Assembly (NCBI GenBank): GCA_030616475.1
Contig: JAUWXF010000002.1
Span: 18 to 64,017 of the forward strand
From: Desulfobacterales bacterium
Lineage (GTDB): Bacteria; Desulfobacterota; Desulfobacteria; Desulfobacterales; C00003060
DNA: 64,000 bases
Direction: 5' to 3'
In this document: positions 5,106 to 47,860 of the stretch, one piece after another
Position numbering within the stretch: position 1 is the stretch's first letter
Layout: each line of letters begins with the position of its first letter
Notes under the pieces: generated by a model
What the model saw: only the letters and a program-made list of their open reading frames with translations
What the model was told of the DNA's origin: nothing
Databases searched by the model: none
Translations under genes and position numbers: made by a program

Positions 5106-6495
5106 CTGGGCCATGGTAGCCGTTTCCCGTCGTATTGCCCTTTCTGTCTTGAACGGCCTGGATGACTCAAATGCTTTCCCGGAGCGTCTCCTTCACACAG
5201 CCTTTGAACGAGAGCCACAGCTCATCAGGAAAGACCGGGCCCTGGCCACTGAGCTGGTCTATGGTGTGCTTCGGTGGCGGAGCCGCCTTGACTGGGTGAT
5301 CTGCCAGCTTTCAAAGACCCCTGTCCACAAGATAGACCGATATGTGCTAAACATAATCCGGCTGGGCCTCTATCAAATCCTTTTCCATTCCCGTATTCCT
5401 CCATCTGCTGCGGTAAACGATTCTGTTGAAATGGCCAAGGGGAGAGCACCATTGTGGGTGGTGCGTTTTGTCAATGGTGTGATGCGATCTGCGGTGCGGA
5501 GAGCAAAAGAGATTCCCCTGCCGGGTTATGCTGATGATCCGGTTCAAGCCATTGCCATAGGAGAATCACACCCTTTGTGGCTGGTCAAACGATGGGTGGA
5601 GCGTCTGGGGGTAGAAGAGACTCGAAGAGTGTGTAAGGCGAACAATCAGGTCCCTTCCGTGACAGTTCGGGCCAATACCCTCAAAGTTAGCAGACGGGAA
5701 CTGCTCAACTCATTGAGAGACTACGTCAGGCAAATTACACCAACCAGATTTGCCCCGGATGGGCTGTCCCTCAGAGGATTGAGACACGGCGTTGCCGACA
5801 TCCCTTCATTCAAGGATGGCTGGTTTCAGGTCCAGGATGAGGCTGCGCAACTCATCACTCATCTGCTAGATCCAAGACCGGGTGAAACAGTCCTGGATGC
5901 CTGTGCCGGATTCGGCGGCAAGACAGGCCACATTGCACAGCTTATGAAGGATAGAGGCAAGATCAAAGCAATGGAGAACCGGTCATGGAAATTGCACCGG
6001 CTCAAGACATCATTGGCGCTCCTTGGTATCTCCGCGGTGACCACGTGGCACCATGACCTGCCAGAGCCGGTTCCTGTTGGATACTTTGGTACCTTTGACC
6101 GGATTTTGCTTGACGCGCCCTGTTCGGGTCTTGGTGTGCTCCGGAGGAATCCGGACGCCAAATGGAAGAAAACTGAGGCGGATCTCACAAGGCTTCGGGC
6201 CAGTCAACTACGCTTCCTTGGCTCCCTTGCTCCCTTACTCAAAAGAGGTGGACGACTGGTCTACTGTGTGTGTAGTCTTGAGCCTGAGGAAAGCGAATAC
6301 GTGGTGGAAGACTTTTTGAAGAATCAAGGCCAATTTGTTATAGATCGAGCACCCGTTGGGCTCTTGGATGTGGATGAACGTCTGATGGACAGCTCGGGCT
6401 TTTTCAGAAGCTTACCTCATGAGCACGACATGGACGGATTCTTTGCAGTACGTCTGAAAAGAACCAATAGTCGTCCATATAAGGTAAGATCTTGA
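5098..6495 (+). CDS. rsmB: 16S rRNA (cytosine-C5)-methyltransferase RsmB/Sun
   Basis: 465-aa ORF with an N-terminal NusB-like region and a C-terminal AdoMet methyltransferase (DACAGFGGKT, DAPCSGLGV). The track start is TTG. The ATG at 5113 is an alternative start. Confidence 0.9.
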   Translation: MDSWAMVAVSRRIALSVLNGLDDSNAFPERLLHTAFEREPQLIRKDRALATELVYGVLRWRSRLDWVICQLSKTPVHKIDRYVLNIIRLGLYQILFHSRIPPSAAVNDSVEMAKGRAPLWVVRFVNGVMRSAVRRAKEIPLPGYADDPVQAIAIGESHPLWLVKRWVERLGVEETRRVCKANNQVPSVTVRANTLKVSRRELLNSLRDYVRQITPTRFAPDGLSLRGLRHGVADIPSFKDGWFQVQDEAAQLITHLLDPRPGETVLDACAGFGGKTGHIAQLMKDRGKIKAMENRSWKLHRLKTSLALLGISAVTTWHHDLPEPVPVGYFGTFDRILLDAPCSGLGVLRRNPDAKWKKTEADLTRLRASQLRFLGSLAPLLKRGGRLVYCVCSLEPEESEYVVEDFLKNQGQFVIDRAPVGLLDVDERLMDSSGFFRSLPHEHDMDGFFAVRLKRTNSRPYKVRS

Positions 6496-6976: not shown

Positions 6977-7960
6977 ATGAGACCTTTCTTAAAAATAGCG
7001 GTCCTGTTTTGCGTTTTTTTAGGGGTTGCAGGGATCAGCGGATATCTTACCCTGAGGTTTATTATAAAAAGCGAAGATACGGTGATTGTCCCAGAGCTTG
7101 TGGGAAAAGACGTAGTATACACCCTGGACATTCTCACCGATCTGGGACTCAACACCAAGGTGAGTGGCTTCGAATACAGGGCTGACGTGCCGAAAAACCA
7201 TGTGGCATACCAGGAGCCAGGACCCGGTAGTGAAGTCAAGAGAAATCGTGATGTTCGCATCATCATCTCGAAAGGGCCAAAGACCTTGGTGGTGCCGGAT
7301 CTTATCGGGATGGATATCCGGCAGGGATATATCATTATGGAAGAAAACGGCCTGTCGCGAGGTGTTTTGTCCCGCACCTTCAACGAACGGGTTTCTACAG
7401 ATGGGATCATAAGCCAGATGCCGCCCTCCGGTACAGTTGTCACGCGGGGTGATTCCATCGACCTGCTGGTCAGCCTTGGCAGACGGCCCGTAACTTATAA
7501 GATGCCCTATCTGGACGGCCTGGTCCTGGAAGATGCTATCTTCATCTTGGAGCGTGCGCACCTTGGGCTTGGTCAAATACGATCTGTTCAAAGAGACGAC
7601 TTGCCGAAGGATGTAGTGGTGGAGCAAGACCCCCGATCCGGCTACCAGGTGGCTTCAGGGACTCTGGTGAATCTGACCCTCAACCGGGCAGCAAAGGGCC
7701 CGATTCTTGATCAGGGGCTAAGCCTGTTTCATCATCGTGTGCGTGAGGGATTCTTGAAAAAGCAGATCCGGATTCGCGTCAATGCCTTTGGTATGTTCTA
7801 TGACTTCCTTGATGCTTTTGTGCGTCCTGGAGAACACATCTGGTTCTTGGCCCCACAAGATTCTGAGACCACGGTCTTCGTGTACCAGGATGGCGAACTT
7901 GTCTTGAGTCATTCTTTTTCCTCCACTTCTGTTGCGGGTTTTTCTCTGAGGTTGAAATAG
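6977..7960 (+). CDS. PASTA domain-containing membrane-anchored protein
   Basis: 327-aa ORF with an N-terminal TM helix and three PASTA-like repeats (VIVPELVGKD..., LVVPDLIGMD..., YKMPYLDGLV...). Confidence 0.75.
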   Translation: MRPFLKIAVLFCVFLGVAGISGYLTLRFIIKSEDTVIVPELVGKDVVYTLDILTDLGLNTKVSGFEYRADVPKNHVAYQEPGPGSEVKRNRDVRIIISKGPKTLVVPDLIGMDIRQGYIIMEENGLSRGVLSRTFNERVSTDGIISQMPPSGTVVTRGDSIDLLVSLGRRPVTYKMPYLDGLVLEDAIFILERAHLGLGQIRSVQRDDLPKDVVVEQDPRSGYQVASGTLVNLTLNRAAKGPILDQGLSLFHHRVREGFLKKQIRIRVNAFGMFYDFLDAFVRPGEHIWFLAPQDSETTVFVYQDGELVLSHSFSSTSVAGFSLRLK

Positions 7961-36911: not shown

Positions 36912-38081
36912 ATGGGAATGAAGATCGCCTACTTTGACTGTTTTGCCGGGATAAGCGGCGACATGATTCTCGGTGCCTTGATCCATCTTGGGGTGCCTGG
37001 AGATTTCATTGAAGAGAATGTCCGCAACATGCCCCTTGAGGCCTTTGATTTGGAGATCAGCACGGCGGCCCGTATGGGGATTCACGGCAGACAAGTAGAA
37101 GTCGTGGTTGCCGATAGAGACAAACCAGCCAGGAATTATCAAGACATAAGGTCGCTTGTCGACAACAGCCCCCTCCCGGACACGGTAAAAGGCTTGAGCC
37201 TTAAGATCTTTGGCAGGCTGGCCGAGGTTGAGGCGTCTATCCACAACTGCCCCAAAGAGAGTGTCCATTTTCATGAATTAGGCGGTGTAGATGCTATTGT
37301 TGATATCGTGGGGGCTGCTCTTGGTGTGGAATGGCTTGGCATTGGCAAGATTTCCGCTTCAGAGATTCCAGTGGGCAAAGGGTTTGTGAGCTGCCAGCAT
37401 GGGAGACTTCCAGTGCCGGCCCCTGCCACCCTGGCCCTCCTTGACGGCGTGCCGGTCTACGGCACAGGAGTTTCCAACGAACTGGTTACACCCACCGGCG
37501 CTGCGATTCTTACAACGCTTTCTCAAGATTTTGGCCCAATGCCCAAAATGCTGATTCGTGAGATCGGTTACGGCGTGGGGGCGCGTGATTTGAAAGAGAT
37601 GCCAAACCTGCTCAGGGTTGTGCTTGGGGAGCCCGATTTTGCGTGTGAGGCAGATTGTGTGACAGTCGTTGAGACCAACATAGATGACATGAATCCCGAG
37701 ATATTCGGCTTTGTCATGGAGAGACTCTTTGAAGATGGGGCCCTTGATGTGGTCTTGATTCCCGTCTTTATGAAGAAAAACCGACCCGGGACCATGGTGC
37801 AGGTTATATGCAAGGAGACTGATCGAGAGACCGTTGTGCGCCGGATTCTTTCGGAGACCACGGCTACCGGGGTGCGGCATTACCGGACGGGGCGATCAAA
37901 GCTCCCACGAAAGGTCAAAGAGGCCACTACCTCCTATGGCAAGGTGCGTGTAAAGGAGGTTTCAGGTCCCACAGGCAGGATTTCTGTGGTACCTGAATAT
38001 GAGGACTGCAAAAAGATTGCTTTGGAGAAGAACGTACCTCTGAAGGTGGTGTATGAGACTATTGTGAAGGAGACGGCGTAG
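36912..38081 (+). CDS. larC: nickel-pincer cofactor biosynthesis protein LarC (DUF111)
   Basis: 389 aa. MKIAYFDCFAGISGDMILGALIHLGV is the hallmark N-terminus. The likely start is the ATG at 36918. Confidence 0.85.
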   Translation: MGMKIAYFDCFAGISGDMILGALIHLGVPGDFIEENVRNMPLEAFDLEISTAARMGIHGRQVEVVVADRDKPARNYQDIRSLVDNSPLPDTVKGLSLKIFGRLAEVEASIHNCPKESVHFHELGGVDAIVDIVGAALGVEWLGIGKISASEIPVGKGFVSCQHGRLPVPAPATLALLDGVPVYGTGVSNELVTPTGAAILTTLSQDFGPMPKMLIREIGYGVGARDLKEMPNLLRVVLGEPDFACEADCVTVVETNIDDMNPEIFGFVMERLFEDGALDVVLIPVFMKKNRPGTMVQVICKETDRETVVRRILSETTATGVRHYRTGRSKLPRKVKEATTSYGKVRVKEVSGPTGRISVVPEYEDCKKIALEKNVPLKVVYETIVKETA

Positions 38082-38125
38082 GATTGACGATTGACGATTG
38101 ACGATTGATGATTGACGCTTGACGG
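38082..38125. repeat. tandem heptamer GATTGAC/GATTGAT x6
   Basis: gattgacgattgacgattgacgattgatgattgacgcttgacgg fills the whole larC-pgpA spacer. Confidence 0.9.
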
Positions 38126-38626
38126 ATGTACGTGCAAGGAGAACGTAGGGCTGGTGGCAAGGCGTTGCATAGGATCGGCGAAAAATGTGTGGTTTTGTTG
38201 GCAACAGGCTGTTATGCAGGATACATTCCCATTGCCTCCGGGACGTTTGGCACCCTAATTGCGATTCCTATCTGTTATGTCATTTCCATGTTTGGCCCAT
38301 TTCAGGGCCTGCTAGTCATAGCGGTATTTTCGGGATTTGCCGTATGGATGTCAGGTAAAGCAGAGAAGGTATTCAACAAGAAAGACAGCGGCTTGATTGT
38401 TATAGATGAGATGGCAGGGTTGCTGGTCACCTTGTTTCTCATTCCCTGGAGCGCTATGAGTGTGGTCATCGGTTTTTTTCTCTTCAGGCTCTTCGATATT
38501 GTCAAGCCCTTTCCCATCAGGAGGCTGGAAACGAAATTGCCGGGTGGGTGGGGTGTAGTCGGCGATGACGTCCTTGCAGGCATTTATGCCAATGTCATTT
38601 TAAGAATCATTGTGGTATCATTTTAG
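38126..38626 (+). CDS. pgpA: phosphatidylglycerophosphatase A
   Basis: 166 aa. It has GYIPIASGTFGTL, IDEMAG, FRLFDIVKPFPIR and GGWGVVGDDVLAGIYA. Confidence 0.85.
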   Translation: MYVQGERRAGGKALHRIGEKCVVLLATGCYAGYIPIASGTFGTLIAIPICYVISMFGPFQGLLVIAVFSGFAVWMSGKAEKVFNKKDSGLIVIDEMAGLLVTLFLIPWSAMSVVIGFFLFRLFDIVKPFPIRRLETKLPGGWGVVGDDVLAGIYANVILRIIVVSF

Positions 38627-38644
38627 TTTTTTGAAACGATCGTC

Positions 38645-38848
38645 GCGAGCAGGTGATTTGATTCTAAACCGGCTCAAACTCGGGCAAAAGTGGGTGTAAA
38701 GAAAGAACTATGAATATCATTAAACATAGCATCAATGGGGGGGACATCGTCTTACAGTTAGGACAAATGTGCGGATTTGCCGTTCTTTCTTAACACTCAC
38801 TAATGCCCTCACACAGTGAGCCGCTTTAGAATCAAATCACCTGCTCGC
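38645..38848 (+). repeat. 204-nt long-hairpin element, copy 1 (MITE-like or structured RNA)
   Basis: It has perfect 24-nt terminal inverted repeats, gcgagcaggtgatttgattctaaa / tttagaatcaaatcacctgctcgc. The inner arms ccggctcaaactcg...gtaaagaaagaac / gttctttcttaac...gagccgc are conserved with copy 2. Confidence 0.85.
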
Positions 38849-38908
38849 TCCATTGGCTCACTCGTTCAAAAGGCTAAATGTATACTCATTGTGAAGTTTT
38901 TCTAGATC

Positions 38909-39406
38909 TTGGATCAAAGGATGGAAGAAAATCCCCTTGAACAGGAAGTGGCGAGGCTACTACTTTCTCTGAAAATGACCGTTGCAGTGGCCGAATCGTG
39001 CACTGGGGGGTTGATTTGCCACCGGTTGACCAACATTTCCGGCAGTTCGGATTATCTGGAAAGGGGAGTGGTGACCTACAGCAACCGCTCCAAGATTGAG
39101 TTATTGGGGGTTTCTGCCCAGGTCATAAGAGAACATGGGGCTGTGAGTGAGGCGTGCGTCCGGGCCATGGCAACCGGCATCAAACGGCTGGCAGGGACGG
39201 ACCTGGGCCTAGCGGTCAGCGGGATTGCCGGTCCCACAGGCGGTACGCCTGAAAAACCAGTGGGCACGGTTTACATGGCCATGGCCTGGAACGAGGATGT
39301 GGAGTGTTGGAAATATCTCTTTGGAGGTAGTCGAGGAGAGATCAAACAGAAGGCTTCAGAGCAAGCCCTCATGCAGATACGGGATCACTGTCAGTCTATA
39401 CTTTGA
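38909..39406 (+). CDS. CinA C-terminal domain protein (nicotinamide-nucleotide amidohydrolase PncC-like)
   Basis: 165 aa with VAVAESCTGGLI and SGIAGPTGG. Confidence 0.85.
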   Translation: MDQRMEENPLEQEVARLLLSLKMTVAVAESCTGGLICHRLTNISGSSDYLERGVVTYSNRSKIELLGVSAQVIREHGAVSEACVRAMATGIKRLAGTDLGLAVSGIAGPTGGTPEKPVGTVYMAMAWNEDVECWKYLFGGSRGEIKQKASEQALMQIRDHCQSIL

Positions 39407-39456
39407 ACGGGCATAATTGGACATTTTCAATTTTTCATCGTGCGCAATATATTGCC

Positions 39457-39630
39457 AAATCCGAAATACGAAGCACGAAATACGAAACAAATCCGAATTT
39501 TCAAATTTCATAGTGTTCGAAACCATGGAGCAGTCAATTTGTTTTGAATTTCTAATTTTGGTAATTTGATATTGTTTCGGATTTGCGGCTTACGCCTTGA
39601 GAACAGTACGATATTCGAATTTCGAATTTA
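39457..39630. repeat. composite word-repeat element lacking the GC-rich core
   Basis: aaatccgaaatacgaagcacgaaatacgaaac ... gatattgtttcggatttgcggcttacgccttgagaacagtacgatattcgaatttcgaattt. It shares the arms and the gcggcttacgccttgagaacagtacg block with 6680-6705 and with the flanks of 34834-35149. Confidence 0.85.
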
Positions 39631-39707
39631 TTTAAACAATAGCCTGAAGCCGATCCCCAACGCAATTTATAAGACACTATTCAATGAGTATGCTCAATAT
39701 ATAAAAG

Positions 39708-40283
39708 ATGCGTGAAAAGATACGGGCTTTCATAGCCATCGATGTGCCGGAACCTGTTCTCCAAGCCATTGAGAAGGCACAGGACACACTTCGGGGATCA
39801 GGTCTTAAGATTAGATGGGTACGTAAAGAAGGCATGCACTTGACCCTGAAGTTCCTGGGAGATATTGACAGGGATGACGTAGAGAAAATCGAGGCCGCGA
39901 TGGTGCGAGCAACGAAGGCCTTTTCCCCATTTACCCTGAGAGCGGAGGGGATTGGTGTTTTTCCGGACCTCAAGCGTCCGCGCGTTGTCTGGGTAGGGCT
40001 ATCCGGAGACGTAGAGGTCGTGCGTGCCCTTCAAAGGGATTTGGAATCCCAGCTCAACGGCCTTGGGTTCCAGAAGGAGAAGCGACCTTTTAAGGGACAT
40101 CTCACTCTGGGCCGCGTCAAAGGTCGTCTGGACCGGGCCAAGCTGGGTAAGGCATTGCAAGCATTGGGAGAGTTTCGAACAGAGTCTTTCACGGCGCAGT
40201 CGGTAGTCCTTTTTCAAAGTGATCTACGCCCCAGCGGCGCAGTCTATAGCAAACTGGCAGAGGTGAGAATAAAAAGTGCCTAA
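39708..40283 (+). CDS. thpR: RNA 2',3'-cyclic phosphodiesterase (2H family)
   Basis: 191 aa with two HxT motifs (HLTLKFLG and HLTLGRV). Confidence 0.85.
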   Translation: MREKIRAFIAIDVPEPVLQAIEKAQDTLRGSGLKIRWVRKEGMHLTLKFLGDIDRDDVEKIEAAMVRATKAFSPFTLRAEGIGVFPDLKRPRVVWVGLSGDVEVVRALQRDLESQLNGLGFQKEKRPFKGHLTLGRVKGRLDRAKLGKALQALGEFRTESFTAQSVVLFQSDLRPSGAVYSKLAEVRIKSA

Positions 40284-40405
40284 AGTGAACTAAAGTGCCT
40301 AAAGTGAGCTAAAGTTGAGGACTTGAAGAAATTCTTTTTAAAAGATCGGTTCTGTTCCTTTAACTTTAGGCACTTTAGCTCACTACTTGCAACTTTAGCT
40401 CACTA
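40276..40405. repeat. hairpin of CTAAAGTG-type words upstream of recA
   Basis: The left arm is gtgcctaaagtgaactaaagtgcctaaagtgagctaaagttgagg. The right arm is ctttaactttaggcactttagctcactacttgcaactttagctcac. The same words occur at 41637-41660 and 46240-46268. Confidence 0.85.
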
Positions 40406-40425
40406 TTACTGAAGGGGGGATACTT

Positions 40426-41442
40426 ATGGGTAGCATATCCATGGACAAGGAGAAGGCGGTCGAACTGGCCATGGGGCAGATAGAACGCCAGTTCGGCAAG
40501 GGTTCCATAATGAAGTTGGGCAGCCAGGTGGTTGCGGACGTCCCGGTTATTCCGACCGGATCGCTTGCCCTGGACCACGCTTTGGGCGTCGGAGGTATTC
40601 CGCGAGGGAGGGTTGTAGAGCTCTTTGGTCCTGAATCCTCGGGCAAGACGACGCTGGCTCTTCACATCGTGGCGGAGGCCCAAAAACAGGACGGCATCGC
40701 GGCCTTCGTGGACGCTGAACATGCCCTGGATGTCAAGTACGCCAGAAAGCTGGGGGTAAACTGTGACGATCTGCTGGTTTCTCAGCCTGACACGGGTGAA
40801 CAGGCCCTGGAGATCACCGAAGTCCTGGTGCGTAGCGGGGCCATGGATGTCGTGGTTATTGATTCTGTGGCCGCCCTGGTGCCCAGAGCAGAGATTGAAG
40901 GGGAAATGGGTGATGTGCACGTGGGCCTGCAGGCCAGGCTTATGTCACAGGCCTTGAGGAAGCTGACCGCCAGTATCAGCAAATCGATGACCTCGGTTAT
41001 CTTTATCAATCAGATTCGGATGAAGATAGGGGTGATGTTCGGCAATCCTGAAACCACGCCAGGGGGGAATGCCCTTAAATTCTATTCCTCGGTTAGGCTT
41101 GACATCCGAAGGATTGGGAGCATCAAGGACGGCCAGGAGGTTATCGGCAGCCGGACCCGCGTGAGAGTAGTCAAGAACAAGGTGGCACCCCCTTTCAAAG
41201 ACGGGGAGTTTGACATCATGTACGGCGACGGGATCTCGACTGCCGGCGACCTTCTTGACATGGGGGTTCAAACCAATGTCGTCGATAAGAGCGGGGCCTG
41301 GTACTCCTTTGACAAGGAACGGATTGGTCAAGGCAGGGAGAATGTCAAGAGCTTCTTGAAGGAAAATCCTGACGTATCTGCTCGTATCCTGGAGAAGGTG
41401 AGTAAGGCCCTTGGACTGGCAAAGGAAAAATCTGATGATTGA
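40426..41442 (+). CDS. recA: recombinase RecA
   Basis: 338 aa. It has [21 protein letters not shown] and [19 protein letters not shown]. Confidence 0.97.
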
Positions 41443-41708
41443 TGATTGATGATTGACGATTGAATATTGACGATTGACTAATGACCAATGACTAATGACC
41501 ACTGACTGTGGAGAAGTGAGCCAAAGTGTCTAACCCTGACAAGCCGGAATTTTGGAATCGCAAATTTAGGAATTTAGGAATTGTGTCTGATTTTAATCCC
41601 TTAATTCCTCAATTCCTGAATCCTGTAATCTCTTCTAACTTTAGCTCACTTTAGGCACTCCGTTATTGACCAATAACGAATAACGAATAACGAGTCACGA
41701 ATAACGAC
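41434..41708. repeat. recA-alaS spacer filled with several word-repeat blocks
   Basis: The blocks are gatgattgatgattgatgattgacgattgaatattgacgattgactaatgaccaatgactaatgacc; aatttaggaatttaggaatt ... ttaattcctcaattcctgaatcc; and caataacgaataacgaataacgagtcacgaataacgac. Confidence 0.9.
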
Positions 41709-44348
41709 ATGACTGGAGATGATCTGCGCAGTAGATTCCTGGCCTATTTTGAGCAAAGGGGCCATACGATTGTGAAGAGCTCGTCGCTGGTGCCGGATGA
41801 TGATCCTACCTTGCTTTTCACGAATGCCGGTATGGTTCAGTTCAAACGAACCTTCTTAGGGGAGGACAAACGCCCTTATGTGCGTGCGGCCAGCTCTCAA
41901 AAGTGTGTTCGGGCGGGCGGGAAACACAATGATCTTGAAAATGTGGGCCACACGGGCCGCCATCATACGTTCTTTGAGATGATGGGAAACTTCTCGTTCG
42001 GAGATTATTTCAAGGAGCGGGGCATTGAACTGGCCTGGGATCTGGTGACAAGGGGATATGGCATCCCTGAAGAGAGGCTATGGGTCTCGGTGTACGAAAA
42101 AGACGATGAGGCTCACAGGCTCTGGTCCAGCCACACAGGGATTCCTGAAGACCGGATCGTTCGCCTTGGAGAAAAAGACAATTTCTGGTCCATGGGCGAT
42201 ACAGGCCCTTGCGGTCCTTGCTCGGAAATACTTATAGACCAGGGTGAGGCGATCGGTTGCGGGCGACCGGAGTGCAGGGTCGGTTGTGATTGTGACCGCT
42301 ACTTGGAGCTCTGGAATCTGGTCTTTATGGAATTCAACCGGGATGAATATGGCAGGATGACGCCCCTTCCAATACCGAGCATTGATACAGGCATGGGTCT
42401 GGAGCGCATTGCAGCAGTGGTCCGAGGGGTTACGAACAACTATGAGACCGATCTGTTCATGCCCATCATAAAAGAGATCGAGACCCTTTCAGGTCACACT
42501 CTTGGGGAATCACCAAAGATTGATGTGTCCATCAAGGTGATCGCAGACCACAGCCGTGCTGCGGCCTTCCTCATTGGTGACGGAGTACTCCCCTCCAATG
42601 AGGGACGCGGATATGTGCTGCGCCGTATCCTGAGACGGGCCATACGTTATGGCCGTACCCTTGGCCTGACGCGCCCCTTTCTGCACCAGACAGCGGGGAG
42701 GGTTTCTCAAGTCATGAAGATGGCCTATCCAGAGCTGTTGGAAGCAGACGCCTATATCAAGAATATTATCAAGAATGAAGAGGTGCGCTTCCTGGGGACC
42801 CTGGACACCGGCCTCCGGGCACTGGAAGATGCACTAAGTGAATTGAAGGCCAGGGATGTCTCAAAGGTACCCGGGGATCTGATCTTTAAGATGTACGACA
42901 CCTATGGTTTTCCGGTGGACATTATCCAGGATATTGTGCGGGATGACGGAACGACCCTCGATATGGCGGGCTTTGAGGCAGCCATGGATCAACAGCGCAT
43001 TCGTTCGCGCATTGCCTGGAAGGGTGCCGATGCTCAGGAGACCGCAGAAGCCTACAAGGCCCTTTCGGCCCGGGGGATACAAACCGATTTCGTGGGCTAT
43101 GACCTGACAAGCATTGACTCGGAAGTCCTCATGGTGGTCCGAGACGGCAAGGCTCTCGAACTGGCCGGTACAGGGGACTCCATTGAGCTTGTAACAGCCA
43201 AGACCCCGTTTTATGGCGAGGCCGGGGGCCAGGTGGGAGATCGTGGCCGTATTACAGGCCCGGGTTTTGAGATGGACGTCTATGATACGGTGAAGCATCC
43301 CAATAACATCATTATTCACAAGGGGAAGGTGCTGCGCGGGAGTATCGCGACAGGGGAGCGTGTGACTCTGAGTGTGGATCAGGGGCGATGTTTGGCCACG
43401 AAAAGGAACCATACTGCCACCCATTTGTTGCATGCGGTACTTCGTCGAGCCCTTGGGGATCATGTGAAACAGTCAGGGTCATTGGTAGGGCCTGACCGTT
43501 TGCGATTCGACTTTACACATTTTTCCGCTCTCGATACGGAGACACTTCAGGAAATTGAGAGCTTGGTGAATGATAGAATTCGTCAGAACATCTCCCTTGA
43601 GATCGAGGAAATGGATGCTGAGGATGCCTTTAAGACAGGGGCGACCGCCTTGTTTGAGGAAAAGTACGGTGATCGTGTTCGGCTTGTGGCTATCGGAGAT
43701 TTCAGTAAGGAACTGTGTGGGGGTACCCATACTGAGCGGACCGGAGATATCGGATTGTTCAAGATTGTGAGCGAGGGGAGCGTGGCCGCAGGGGTTCGGC
43801 GGATCGAAGCACTTACAGGCACAACGGCCGTTGCTTACACACAAGAGGCCTTTCATACCTTGCGGACCCTGGCAGAGACGCTGAAAACCAAGCCTGAAGA
43901 GCTAACAGACAGGCTTCACAGGATCATGGAACATGAGAAGACCCTGGAGAAGGAACTTGCCGCCATTAAGGCCAAAGCACAGACCGAGGTATCAGACCGG
44001 GTCCTTTCCGAGATCAAGGTCATCAACGGCGTATCTGTCCTCGCCCAGGAGGTTTCAGTAGACACAGCTGCGGGCTTGAGAGACCTGGCTGATCGCCTCA
44101 AAGCAAAAATGAAGTCAGGTATTGTGGTGCTGGGGAGCAGGACACCAGATAAGGCCCTGCTGGTGGCCGTGGTGACGAAGGATCATCTAGATCGGTATCA
44201 TGCTGGCCAGATCGTGAAGCAGGTGGCTGCTGTCGTGGGTGGTGGTGGCGGAGGCCGACCTGATATGGCGCAGGCCGGGGGAAGCAAACCCGAAAAACTC
44301 CCGGAGGCACTGGCCGGGGTTTTTGATATAATAGCCAAGGGCTGTTGA
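41709..44348 (+). CDS. alaS: alanine--tRNA ligase
   Basis: 879 aa. It has FTNAGMVQFK, the editing-domain motifs HTATHLL and CGGTH, and a C-terminal DHHA1-like region with GGGGGRPDMAQAGG. Confidence 0.97.
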   Translation: MTGDDLRSRFLAYFEQRGHTIVKSSSLVPDDDPTLLFTNAGMVQFKRTFLGEDKRPYVRAASSQKCVRAGGKHNDLENVGHTGRHHTFFEMMGNFSFGDYFKERGIELAWDLVTRGYGIPEERLWVSVYEKDDEAHRLWSSHTGIPEDRIVRLGEKDNFWSMGDTGPCGPCSEILIDQGEAIGCGRPECRVGCDCDRYLELWNLVFMEFNRDEYGRMTPLPIPSIDTGMGLERIAAVVRGVTNNYETDLFMPIIKEIETLSGHTLGESPKIDVSIKVIADHSRAAAFLIGDGVLPSNEGRGYVLRRILRRAIRYGRTLGLTRPFLHQTAGRVSQVMKMAYPELLEADAYIKNIIKNEEVRFLGTLDTGLRALEDALSELKARDVSKVPGDLIFKMYDTYGFPVDIIQDIVRDDGTTLDMAGFEAAMDQQRIRSRIAWKGADAQETAEAYKALSARGIQTDFVGYDLTSIDSEVLMVVRDGKALELAGTGDSIELVTAKTPFYGEAGGQVGDRGRITGPGFEMDVYDTVKHPNNIIIHKGKVLRGSIATGERVTLSVDQGRCLATKRNHTATHLLHAVLRRALGDHVKQSGSLVGPDRLRFDFTHFSALDTETLQEIESLVNDRIRQNISLEIEEMDAEDAFKTGATALFEEKYGDRVRLVAIGDFSKELCGGTHTERTGDIGLFKIVSEGSVAAGVRRIEALTGTTAVAYTQEAFHTLRTLAETLKTKPEELTDRLHRIMEHEKTLEKELAAIKAKAQTEVSDRVLSEIKVINGVSVLAQEVSVDTAAGLRDLADRLKAKMKSGIVVLGSRTPDKALLVAVVTKDHLDRYHAGQIVKQVAAVVGGGGGGRPDMAQAGGSKPEKLPEALAGVFDIIAKGC

Positions 44349-44757
44349 TTATTGAATATTGATTATTGAATATTGGCTATTTAGGCATCCTTCATTTTCG
44401 CCATAAAGTAGTTTACACCTATTGACCAGTGTTCAGGTTTCAGTGTTCAGGTTTCAGGTCTTGCTTTTTCAGTTCCTGACACCTGATACCTGGTGCCTGG
44501 TTTCAGTGTTCAGGTTTCAGACCCGCCTGCCAACGCCTAGGTCACACCGAGGTTACAATGCCCGCATACACGGCAATGGCGGGCAGGTCTTGCGTTTCTC
44601 GCTCCTGACACCTGACACCAAAAAGTACGAACAAAAGAATTTATCTCTTGGCGCCCGCATTCTTGAAAAGTGTAAACCGAGGAATGAAGGATGCCGCTAT
44701 TTAATGATCAAGAGATTCTTCTTTCAATCGTCAATCGTCAATCGTCAATATTCAATC
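44346..44757. repeat. nested-hairpin composite element with a short inverted CTGCCCGCC core (44521-44590)
   Basis: The outer arms are ttattgaatattgattattgaatattg / caatcgtcaatcgtcaatattcaatcc. The inner arms are gttcaggtttcag repeats / cctgacacctgacacc. The core reverse complement is gacctgcccgccattgccgtgtatgcgggcattg...ggcgttggcaggcgggt. Confidence 0.85.
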
Positions 44758-44760
44758 CTG

Positions 44761-45825
44761 TCATACCCAGGTGATTTGGTGACTCCCCTTTTTCCTTTCC
44801 ACAATGCTGCCTATGACGTATGGCTTTTCGTCCATGGCCGCAAGGAACTCCATAATTCCCTCTGTGGCTCTTTCAGGGACCACAAGGATGAGCCCAATTC
44901 CATTATTGAAGGTTCTCATCATTTCCCGTTTTGAGAGCTTACCTGCTTCCTGAAGGAAGGTGAAAACAGGCGGGGGCTCCCAGCTTGCTTTATCGATCTG
45001 GGCCTTGCAGGATGATGGGAGTATACGGGGCAGGTTGTCTACGATACCACCCCCGGTTATATGGGCAATCCCGTGTATTGGGAAGTCACGCAAGAGGTGA
45101 CGAACAACCTCGGAATAAATCTTGGTCGGCTCCAGAAGCTCTTCCCCAATAGTTCTTCCCAATATGTCAACTGTGTCATCTACCTTCAATTTGAGTCTTT
45201 CAAAGCAGATCTTTCGAGCCAAAGAGTAACCGCTGCTGTGAAGACCGCTTGAGGCGATGCCAATGAGCTTATGGCCTACTGCAATCTCTGATCCATCCAC
45301 GATCTTGCTGTTATCTACAATGCCAACCACAAACCCTGCCAGATCGTACTCCCCGCCGCTGTACAGTCCGGGCATCTCTGCTGTTTCACCCCCTATAAGA
45401 GGACACCTGGCACGTTTGCAGCCCTCGACAATTCCCCGAACAATCGCCTCGGCTGTTTCGGGGACAAGGGTTCCCATGGAAAGATAGTCAAGAAAAAATA
45501 AGGGCTTGGCACCCTGCACCGCAATATCATTGACACACATTGCCACCAGGTCAATCCCGATGGTTTCGTGCTTGTCCATCATGCAAGCAACCTTGACTTT
45601 AGTGCCCACCCCATCCGTGGAGCTTACCAGAACAGGTTTCTCATACTGGCTTACGTCGAGAGAATAAAGGCCGCTGAACCCCCCAATGCCGGCAATTACC
45701 CCGGCCCGAGGGGCCTCCCTGGTGATTTTCTTAATAGTCTTTATGAAGCGATTCGCTTTGTCGATATCGACTCCTGCATCTTGATAGGTAAGAGACTCGT
45801 TCATGCCACGCTCCGTTGGGTTCAT
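44761..45825 (-). CDS. purM: phosphoribosylformylglycinamidine cyclo-ligase (AIR synthetase)
   Basis: 354 aa. It has YQDAGVDID, DGVGTK and GGETAEMPG. Confidence 0.95.
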   Translation of the reverse strand: MNPTERGMNESLTYQDAGVDIDKANRFIKTIKKITREAPRAGVIAGIGGFSGLYSLDVSQYEKPVLVSSTDGVGTKVKVACMMDKHETIGIDLVAMCVNDIAVQGAKPLFFLDYLSMGTLVPETAEAIVRGIVEGCKRARCPLIGGETAEMPGLYSGGEYDLAGFVVGIVDNSKIVDGSEIAVGHKLIGIASSGLHSSGYSLARKICFERLKLKVDDTVDILGRTIGEELLEPTKIYSEVVRHLLRDFPIHGIAHITGGGIVDNLPRILPSSCKAQIDKASWEPPPVFTFLQEAGKLSKREMMRTFNNGIGLILVVPERATEGIMEFLAAMDEKPYVIGSIVERKKGSHQITWV

Positions 45826-45949
45826 GTGTTCATTAGTCCCTTAGTTGTGAAATTCGTATTTTTTCTGGCAGAAAATTTCTTGCTATATTCAACAACAAGA
45901 CATCGGTCGGGCGTAAAGCCCGACCCTACGTAGGGGCGGGGTTTATCCC

Positions 45950-46236
45950 CGCCCGGTCTGAGCCAAAGCCCGCCCTGGTGCGATTCGTTCATATATATTG
46001 ATCTGGGCTATGCATCATTACACACCTGACTTTTTGAGTATAAAGTATTGGTGATCGGTCTGGCCCAGACCGGGTTTTTCACTCTGTGGCATTCTCCATC
46101 TTCTGTCGCGCCAGGGCGGGCCGGGTTTTTCTTCCCTGGGTATGGTCCAACTTCTGTCGCGCCCCTGGCCCAGACCGGGATGATAGGGACGGCACATCAA
46201 TGCTAAAGCTGTCGCGCCAGGGCGGGCAGGGCGGGC
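45950..46236. repeat. GC-rich direct/inverted repeat cluster (TGTCGCGCCAGGGCGGGC and CTGGCCCAGACCGGG modules)
   Basis: cttctgtcgcgccagggcgggc, cttctgtcgcgcccctggcccagaccggg and gctgtcgcgccagggcgggcagggcgggc, plus the palindrome ggtctggcccagacc. Reverse-complement modules occur at 6893-6950 and 2224-2306. Confidence 0.85.
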
Positions 46237-46371
46237 TTTAGGCACTTTAGTTCACTTTAGGCACTTTTTTTTGGTTCCGGCATGTCCGTGTCCGGGTATC
46301 CCATAGTATAATCTTCCAAATAAGTCAAAAGAAATCTATCAATTTAGCCTATTGAAAAAGCGAGCCTAACG

Positions 46372-46578
46372 AGCATACAGGCAATCCGATTCTAAAGCGG
46401 GTCTCTGTTTGAGCGTATTAGTGAGCGTTAAGAAAGAACAGCAAAGTGACATATTCTTTCTAAGGGTCAAATGATATCCGCCATAATCGAGGTTACTTAC
46501 AAAAGTCGGTCCCTGTTCTTTCTTTACGCTCACTTATGCGCGAGTTTGAGCCGGTTTAGAATCGGATTGCCTGTATGC
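46372..46578 (-). repeat. 207-nt long-hairpin element, copy 2 (inverted relative to copy 1)
   Basis: It has perfect 24-nt terminal inverted repeats, gcatacaggcaatccgattctaaa / tttagaatcggattgcctgtatgc. The inner arms are homologous to 38645-38848. The central roughly 70 nt is unrelated. Confidence 0.85.
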
Positions 46579-46693
46579 GATAATGTCTTCAAAGAACTAA
46601 AATGTTACAAGAAATCTTTTTGACATCAGCCCTGCTGTGGTATAATAAGATGTTTAAAAGGAAGGAAATTAGACCATATAGAAGGCTTGCACC

Positions 46694-47860
46694 ATGAAAG
46701 AATTTGCCCGGTTGAACCGGCTTCCTCCCTATGTCTTTACAACGGTAAACAAGATCAAGATGGATGCCCGTCGTGCAGGAGAGGACATTATTGACCTGGG
46801 GATGGGGAATCCTGATATGCCAACTCCAAAGCACATCGTGAATAAGCTGATAGAGGCATCCGGAAAGGGCCACAACCACCGGTATTCAGCATCCATGGGG
46901 ATCACAAAGCTTCGGATGGCGATTGCCGACTGGTATAAACGAAGGTTTGACGTGAATATAGACCCGGATACCGAAGCGATTGTCACCATTGGCGCCAAAG
47001 AAGGGATTTCTCATCTTGTGCTGGTAACCATACGCCCGGGGGATGTCGTCTTTTCGCCGGATCCCACATACCCGATCCATCCTTATTCGGCAGTCATTGC
47101 TGGTGGGGATGTTCGTGGGATTCCCTTGAGTCCGGATCGGGATTTTTTTGAAGACCTGATTGCGGCTACAAGGCAGACATGGCCCCGGCCCAAGATGCTC
47201 ATCATCTCCTTTCCACACAATCCTACAACCGAAGTAGTCGATTTGGCCTTTTTTGAAAAGGTGGTGGATTTCGCCAAAGAGCATGACATCCTGGTGATTC
47301 ATGATTTTGCCTATGCAGACCTGGTTTTTGACGGGTATGAGCCCCCCAGTTTTCTTCAGGTGCCGGGTGCCAAGGATATCGGGGTGGAATTCTTTTCGCT
47401 TTCCAAGAGTTATAGCATGCCGGGATGGCGTGTGGGCTTTTGCGTTGGCAATTCCGAGATTGTCGGAGCACTTCGTCGCATCAAGAGCTATCTTGATTAT
47501 GGCATCTTTCAACCCATTCAAATTGCATCCATTATTGCACTTAACGGACCTCAGGACTGTGTCAAGGAGATCGTAGAGACGTACAAGATTAGGCGCGATG
47601 CCCTGATAGACGGGCTGAACAGGGTAGGGTGGCCGGTCAAGCGACCCAAGGGGACCATGTTTGTCTGGACAAAGATCCCTGAGCCATACCTCAAGATGGG
47701 CTCTGTTGAGTTTTCAAAAATGTTGATCCGAAAAGCTAAGGTGGCCGTCTCACCAGGGCTTGGTTTTGGGGAATACGGAGATGAATACGTCCGGTTTGCC
47801 CTCATAGAAAACAAGATGCGCATTAATCAGGCCATAAGGGGGATTCGGAAGATTCTTTGA
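46694..47860 (+). CDS. class I/II PLP-dependent aminotransferase (AlaC/AspC-like)
   Basis: 388 aa. It has PHNPTT and [15 protein letters not shown] (PLP lysine context). Confidence 0.85.

Follow-up and report, generated by a model that had tools for sequence, protein, structure and literature searches.

What maintains the complementarity of the two arms of a long hairpin whose copies differ in sequence and are nevertheless perfectly paired at their bases? The question is raised by a 64,000-nt stretch of DNA (contig C215, hereafter the window) from a Desulfobacterales metagenome-assembled genome (MAG) of 3.79 Mb, 360 contigs and 48.7% G+C, in which two hairpins of about 205 nt are found at 38645-38848 and, inverted, at 46373-46578. 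Both lie where a preliminary description of the window had placed them, except that the second begins at 46373 rather than 46372. As was also recognized then, the outer 24 nt of the arms are fully complementary in copy 1 and in copy 2, the left arms of the two copies differ at exactly seven positions (3, 4, 5, 10, 11, 14 and 15), each difference being mirrored in the partner arm, and the inner arm motifs are common to both copies. Over slightly longer distances, the complementarity amounts to 97% across 32 nt in copy 1 (38645-38676 / 38817-38848) and 94% across 31 nt in copy 2 (46373-46403 / 46548-46578). [quoted passage not shown] We conclude that the element is almost certainly a MITE, and we consider it highly probable that the locus as a whole is to be read as a MITE carrying a passenger hairpin.

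The repeat family and its ends

The hairpins had been described as a pair. BLAST and profile searches of the whole assembly locate about 60 loci, and further copies are found in other genera, families and metagenomes; within the window, the core motif of the hairpin is limited to the two copies and has no matches in shuffled sequence. Chance similarity, or the recent local formation of palindromes, is therefore ruled out. Of these loci, 43 are full-length units of 271-277 nt, non-coding and distributed over at least six subfamilies, and 25 close and 18 diverged full-length copies can be aligned end to end. When copy 2 is reverse-complemented, its similarity to copy 1 extends past the hairpin by ~30 nt on the left and ~37 nt on the right, and in the alignment of the 25 close copies the similarity ends abruptly at both borders, GTAACATTTTAG and CTAAATTGATAC (GTAAC.../...GATAC). 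The 24-nt arms originally taken to be terminal form the basal stem of a hairpin lying inside the element, the true termini lying 30-37 nt farther out; there, imperfect terminal inverted repeats, GTAACATTTTAGTTCTTTGAAAA and GTATCAATTTAGCCTATTGAAAAA, are kept in all subfamilies. The check for target-site duplications that had been recommended gave perfect 8-bp repeats around both window copies, located outside these true ends rather than outside the hairpin, and among the 38 evaluable full-length copies of the genome the 8-bp duplication is perfect (8/8) in 24 and matches at 7/8 positions in seven more.

The central ~70 nt, which had been called unrelated in the two copies, are ~55% identical once copy 2 is placed in inverted orientation, and are no more similar than that because the copies belong to two subfamilies. 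No open reading frame (ORF) is conserved across subfamilies, since the loops are unrelated between families. When the copies of this genome were checked against its genes, none was found inside a gene, and many adjoin gene ends. Shorter derivatives accompany the full-length units: seven forms of ~189 nt fall into two internal-deletion types, both represented by several copies, and eight minis of ~60 nt consist of just the two ends joined, without the hairpin, at junctions that are variable (CATTTAGG, CATTAAGG, CAGTTAGG and others). Most members of both size classes retain their own 8-bp duplications. The features of prokaryotic MITEs are thus present, an autonomous partner being represented only by a candidate in a congener, and the ends and duplications are those that mark IS66 derivatives. 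The MITE part of the original proposal is upheld by the terminal inverted repeats, the 8-bp duplications, the copy number, an empty site and a matching IS66-family element, while the anatomy that went with it has to be revised.

Elements of the IS66 family have inverted repeats of 20-30 bp beginning GTAA.. and 8-bp direct repeats (PMC11946415). The GTAA ends and 8-bp duplications found here correspond to that published signature, and the element is therefore filed as an IS66-type MITE. A candidate relative with coding capacity is present in the congener G006, where locus L073, a 2629-nt contig, holds a 2362-bp insertion sequence (IS) with ends GTAACAGTTTAGATCTTTGACAA and GTAATAGTTTAGCTCTTTGACAA, in which 20/23 and 19/23 bases are identical to the MITE end consensus GTAACATTTTAGTTCTTTGAAAA. 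This IS codes for a 487-aa protein with zf-IS66 and DDE_Tnp_IS66 domains. Based on the end match with the congener's element, we infer that the MITE would be moved in trans by an IS66-family DDE transposase. IS66-family insertion sequences of the single-transposase form and the MITE are alike in their GTAA ends and 8-bp duplications, and with the L073 IS the MITE shares the 20/23 end match, the minis amounting to the two ends alone; the L073 IS is unlike the MITE in having coding capacity, whereas the interior of the MITE is the 204-nt hairpin, which is absent from the IS. Besides the transposase, the IS carries an ORF for a 292-aa DruA/DUF4338-like protein (E 1.5e-36; G006:C302, 1590-2468, minus strand), located upstream of the transposase with an overlap of ~100 nt, whereas the MITE is without genes.

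Several observations weigh against this assignment of a transposase. The match between MITE and IS is limited to ~23 nt, an IS66 transposase profile has no match in the assembly of this genome, and among the 16 carrier genomes searched a matching IS was found only in G006; the genomes searched are MAGs or metagenome bins, from which IS copies are often lost. When paired ends 0.3-8 kb apart were sought in this genome, the sole pair proved to be two separate MITE copies on one contig, with no transposase enclosed. Since there is no such transposase in the assembly, the copies in this genome may now be immobile.

The hairpin as a passenger module

The 204-nt hairpin is a passenger module and not a transposon end. 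The ends of the L073 IS match just the outer 20-23 nt of the MITE, the arms being absent. One copy (C201) has the hairpin turned around between its ends and another (C151) has a substituted left end, the breakpoint in each lying exactly at the hairpin base. A hairpin-forming element with modular cargo had been considered; what is modular is the hairpin itself, which travels in at least two MITE backbones, and not its loop. Near-invariance marks the hairpin core, both across subfamilies and in five families of the order (AACTCGCGCATAAGTGAGCGTAAAGAAAGAAC, a variable loop of ~70 nt, then GTTCTTTCTTAACGCTCACTAATACGCTCAAACAGT), and the basal stem and loop vary freely among them. A pattern search for the core with both arms at the right spacing found it in multiple copies in 9 of 401 genomes of the order, representing five genera of five families, and, outside the order, in one of ~194 sampled genomes of the phylum. 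Some of these genomes have the core between the IS66-type ends described above, and others have it in a different element. Backbone B has the same core, ends CAGAAATTTACAAACTCATT and 5-6-bp duplications (19 copies checked), and in the congeners G001 and G006 the hairpin is contained within a longer repeat with termini GGAYCTATAAACAA.

An autonomous version was sought in a metagenome scan, which gave 84 core matches: 49 normal hairpins, 24 interrupted where the contig stops and 11 with no right arm close by, the last being deletion derivatives, truncations or an isolated 21-mer. None of the 84 has a gene between the arms, and viral contigs gave no core match. The isolated 21-mer, identical to the left core arm, is surrounded by unrelated sequence on a metagenome contig (L141, ~6372-6392), where the rest of the element is missing from its vicinity. 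Some hairpin copies, located in different backbones and genomes (G000 C151:3532-3799; L102 ~7210-7235; L085; L107), contain tiny palindromic inserts, CCGCCTGCGGCGG in the right core arm and CCACGCCGAAGGCGG in the left arm, which suggests that a still smaller mobile palindrome nests in these elements.

Compensated changes and a probable strand-specific fold

Covariation was analyzed in 99 distinct copies at 38 consensus pairs, using as controls structures slid by 1-3 columns and column shuffles. Pairing extends to 92.3% of cells on the better strand, compared to 26-45% for the slid structures and a mean of 78.8% (max 80%) for the shuffles; double-sided changes, including GC<->CG and AU<->UA swaps, occur at 28 of the 38 pairs, compared to 21.5 (max 25) in the shuffles. 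Since pairing exceeds both kinds of control, it must be actively maintained. The same covariation signal, however, can be given by DNA-level arm copying as well as by an RNA fold.

The pace of the changes was estimated by pair-state parsimony, with 57 copies in the tree. Terminal branches have 18 double-hit pairs, of which 16 are compensated, whereas random placement of the same number of changes yields a mean of 2.8 double hits and a maximum of 9 in 5000 simulations; compensated pairs on single-copy branches are ~6-fold above the expectation for independent hits. When the mutation yardstick is taken from the loop columns, double changes are still in about 8-10-fold excess, an estimate derived from the same counts. 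The mismatches on terminal branches comprise 35 of transversion type, 29 that are wobbles on the complementary strand and 13 that are wobbles on the top strand. Copy 1 itself provides an example, a private compensated pair in which A-T has become G-C (GCGAG/CTCGC), its two closest relatives having GCGAA/TTCGC and GCCAA/TTGGC. Compensated pairs on terminal branches are too frequent for independent mutation plus selection, which makes arm-to-arm copying the simplest mechanism. A new mutation in one arm would be copied into the other by quasipalindrome template switching or by mismatch correction in the hairpin, so that a single mutation would be turned into a compensated pair in one step. On balance, DNA-level arm copying is probably the main cause of the kept complementarity. 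Two points count against giving it this role. The excess assumes that terminal branches represent single lineages, and unsampled transposing master copies under selection could inflate it. Asymmetric internal loops, moreover, are conserved across families; copying alone would erase them, and since they are kept, copying is not the whole story.

A second signal concerns the strand. Read in the GTAAC-first orientation, changes from Watson-Crick pairs to A.C or C.A, which are G.U wobbles on the complementary strand, number 41 events, 29 terminal and 12 internal, whereas the opposite mismatches, wobbles on the top strand, number 13, all terminal and none internal. All 22 of 22 repairs begin from the complementary-strand kind of wobble. 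Among transitions in unpaired columns no bias is apparent (G>A 36, C>T 44, A>G 47, T>C 42). For the basal stem by itself, a hand count of wobble events from the first parsimony run, in which spurious ancestral C.A states arose, gives 17 versus 3. At one dinucleotide of the major subfamily, both perfect haplotypes (C-G/A-U and U-A/G-C) are present together with only the G.U/U.G double-wobble intermediate of the complementary strand. For 55 of 57 copies the folding energy predicted for that strand is the lower one, by ~10 kcal/mol, and the strand also folds better in other families and in 32 of 34 metagenome copies, in which wobble cells are biased in the same direction (139 vs 29). Relative to private events, inherited ones are most frequent among compensated pairs, followed by complementary-strand wobbles, transversions and, at zero, opposite wobbles, a ranking which suggests that the constraint acts on the lineages that go on multiplying.

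These data are best accommodated if the fold is constrained on one strand, the complement of the GTAAC-first orientation, where mismatches would persist only as G.U or G.T wobbles; we think it rather probable that such a constraint is real. Thus both halves of the earlier suggestion, that either pairing or the copying of one arm from the other is kept up, find support, in the strand-biased wobbles and in compensated pairs that arose too fast for independent mutation, respectively. As to the folded molecule, read-through RNA is slightly preferred over single-stranded DNA. Against a constraint of this kind it has to be considered that part of the strand bias stems from a small number of old C.A positions inherited in the core. 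Scans of both copies detected only weak promoter and terminator matches, none of them conserved in the element, and in tandem gene contexts the strand co-oriented with the flanking genes is the top strand in 22 copies and the complementary strand in 13, which is not a significant bias. The lack of a significant gene-orientation bias gives no support to a role inside host mRNAs. An Rfam scan of 38000-47200 (E <= 1) returned nothing on either hairpin. At the end of copy 2 that faces the aminotransferase gene there is an outward-directed TTTAGA-18-(TG)-GATAAT (46555-46584, plus strand), which is not kept in subfamily 1 and may be due to chance.

It is possible, and we propose it only tentatively, that the ~130-nt core, with its arms, fixed asymmetric internal loops and conserved wobbles, is a so far undescribed, structured and strand-specific module with a function of its own, as RNA or as single-stranded DNA, and that it was spread through the Desulfobacterota on transposon ends of at least two unrelated types, one IS66-type and making 8-bp duplications, another CAGAAATTTAC-type and making duplications of 5-6 bp. 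If so, the fold, and not only the sequence, would decide which copies keep proliferating, and this would explain why wobbles on one strand are inherited and those of the opposite type never are.

Rather than being copied at DNA level, the arms could be shaped by ordinary selection on RNA pairing alone, in a functional non-coding RNA gene or regulatory module for which the MITE is a mere vehicle. The strong covariation at 28 of 38 pairs, GC<->CG and AU<->UA swaps included, is compatible with this explanation, as are the conservation of the core sequence and of the asymmetric internal loops in five families, the confinement of wobbles to the one strand that folds better in nearly all copies, and the G.U/U.G wobble on that strand as the sole intermediate in the major subfamily; the bcr1 repeat of Bacillus, which is MITE-like, transcribed and subject to RNA-level compensatory changes, is a precedent (PMC3184786). 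Still, we regard it as unlikely, given that no Rfam family matches, the promoter is not conserved, the gene-orientation bias is not significant, with the better-folding strand if anything more often antisense, and the 16 compensated pairs on single-copy branches, where ~1-3 are expected, arose too fast for mutation and selection alone. Very improbable is a scheme without folding, in which the arms are extended terminal or subterminal repeats that are bound by the transposase and covary to fit the same protein. Inverted transposon ends do normally co-evolve with their transposase, and the core arms are conserved in sequence and not in pairing alone; but the matching IS66-family IS has no arms and shares the outer ~23 nt only, the armless 60-nt minis have duplications of their own and so have probably transposed, the same core occurs in a backbone with other ends and another duplication length, and none of the 84 metagenome matches encloses a gene. 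Neither would protein specificity explain why close copies differ by single compensated pairs (GCGAG/CTCGC, GCGAA/TTCGC, GCCAA/TTGGC), nor would double-stranded binding sites predict a strand bias.

A hairpin that lands repeatedly inside MITEs as a REPIN-like or HUH-type single-stranded DNA element, moved by a Y1 transposase (RAYT or IS200-like), would fit the strand-specific fold, the precise boundaries at the hairpin base in C201 (hairpin flipped) and C151 (end replaced), and the occurrence of the hairpin in unrelated backbones, and the genome does contain 10 Y1_Tnp matches. We give this possibility marginally less credence even than transposase binding, since no hairpin was seen outside a MITE-type backbone, no Y1 gene is flanked by the element, a conserved GTAG-type REP motif is missing and the minis, the junctions of which vary, do not represent clean empty sites for hairpin insertion. 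Four of the 10 Y1_Tnp matches lie in unusually long frames of 330-350 aa (G000 C113, C82, C129, C237) and may serve other repeat families.

The window copies and known systems

The features of the two window copies are collected in Table 1. The ORF at 38126-38626 encodes PgpA, and its stop codon, TAG (38624-38626), is supplied by the left end of copy 1, the insertion of which replaced the last three pgpA codons. A BLAST search with the joined flanks of copy 1 found the pgpA-cinA junction uninterrupted in the closest congener, G417 (95% identity), and also in G010, G009, G014, G015 and others, and the pgpA of the congeners keeps its native ...TTTTTCTAG end. Based on this empty site, the insertion of copy 1 is specific to the present lineage. 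The same flanks are split by ~80-490 nt of other sequence in G008, G420, G018, G019, G142, G424, G416 and G259 (~80 nt in G424 and G416), and insertions seem to have landed repeatedly in this short gap. A composite transposon formed by copies 1 and 2 around cinA-ligT-recA-alaS-purM was considered and ruled out, each copy having its own matching duplication; an integron attC site was likewise ruled out, as the copies are dispersed among housekeeping genes, each with its own duplications.

Table 1. Coordinates of the two MITE copies and their parts in the window
Feature	Position	Strand	Remarks
Target-site duplication, copy 1 left, TCATTGTG	38607..38614	.	Identical 8-mer at 38886-38893; in last codons of pgpA
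MITE copy 1, 271 nt, subfamily 1, 'top' orientation	38615..38885	+	Full-length family-profile match; ends GTATCATTTTAG...CTAAATGTATAC
Copy 1 left outer end, IS66-type terminal inverted repeat	38615..38644	+	Consensus GTAACATTTTAGTTCTTTGAAAA; copy 1 differs at 3 positions
Copy 1 hairpin module	38645..38848	+	Minimum free energy -98.2 (top strand), -99.0 (complementary strand)
Copy 1 basal stem P1	~38645-38672 / 38821-38848	+	Part of hairpin module
Copy 1 conserved core arms	~38676-38708 / 38782-38817	+	Core motif location
Copy 1 variable loop	38709-38781	+	Between core arms
Copy 1 right outer end	38849..38885	+	Alignment with right ends of all family members
Target-site duplication, copy 1 right, TCATTGTG	38886..38893	.	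Identical to left 8-mer
Target-site duplication, copy 2, AAGAAATC	46329..46336	.	Identical 8-mer at 46609-46616
MITE copy 2, 272 nt, major subfamily 2, opposite orientation to copy 1	46337..46608	-	purM / aminotransferase divergent intergenic region
Copy 2 hairpin module	46373..46578	-	Minimum free energy -90.8 / -100.2
Target-site duplication, copy 2, AAGAAATC	46609..46616	.	Pairs with 46329-46336

Other small repeats share the window. Units of 7 nt (TTGACGA / TTGATGA and their complements) form mutually inverted tandem arrays in several intergenic gaps, at 38067-38142, 41422-41511, 44345-44381 and 44724-44759. These arrays resemble the heptamer repeats of filamentous cyanobacteria. A second repeat, made of AGTGCCTAAAGTGAACTAAAGT-type units, occurs in both orientations after ligT, before recA, before alaS and beside copy 2 (40268-40316, 40363-40404, 41632-41659, 46236-46272).

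Taken alone, the family is one more set of MITEs, in an uncultured lineage of sulfate reducers, which explains many contig breaks and altered gene ends, such as the rewritten pgpA end at copy 1. Two points have a wider reach, the strand-biased core common to unrelated backbones and the probable DNA-level arm copying, which can mimic RNA covariation. With regard to the latter, the family would provide a natural data set on perfect covariation arising in DNA without RNA selection, and the excess of compensated pairs calls for caution in covariation-based RNA discovery in repeat-rich genomes. With regard to the former, if the core is a functional RNA or single-stranded DNA module, miniature transposons would be distributing a structured element and not just themselves.

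Among known repeats that fold and carry compensatory changes, the ERIC and Correia elements, hairpin MITEs of the enterobacterial and neisserial kind, are intergenic, palindromic, 100-300 nt long and present in many copies, often at gene ends, and can fold in transcripts; we know of no sequence similarity between them and the MITE described here. Correia elements duplicate TA, and their effects on mRNA depend on orientation, in contrast to the MITE, which has no significant orientation bias. REPINs, which are doublets of REP sequences, form long, imperfect, multicopy intergenic hairpins, are moved by RAYT and are thought to act as single-stranded structures; they are not known to produce target duplications, and they flank a RAYT gene. 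The MITE differs in its 8-bp duplications, its IS66-type ends and the lack of association with the Y1 genes of the genome, and a REPIN/RAYT system was ruled out on the grounds of the target duplications and of the 10 Y1_Tnp matches, none of which adjoins a copy.

With respect to mechanism, the closest parallel is quasipalindrome template switching in E. coli, in which an imperfect inverted repeat has one of its arms copied from the other during replication (PMC7202029). It likewise yields perfectly compensated pairs from single changes and fits the excess on terminal branches, but it has been described at engineered or hotspot sites and not as a long-term shaper of a transposon family, and alone it predicts neither a strand bias nor retained internal loops. 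With respect to architecture, the best comparison is with bcr1 of the Bacillus cereus group, a transcribed mobile repeat of ~155 bp with 5-bp direct repeats, in which compensatory base-pair changes are reported to preserve structure at the RNA level (PMC3184786). Both bcr1 and the MITE are short, non-autonomous repeats with a long folded structure and compensatory changes; the two differ in phylum, ends, duplication length and sequence, and, whereas the compensation in bcr1 is reported to act at the RNA level, that in the MITE seems to result largely from DNA-level arm copying. Repeats that fold with compensatory changes are already known, and the Desulfobacterales element represents a new MITE family of a familiar sort.

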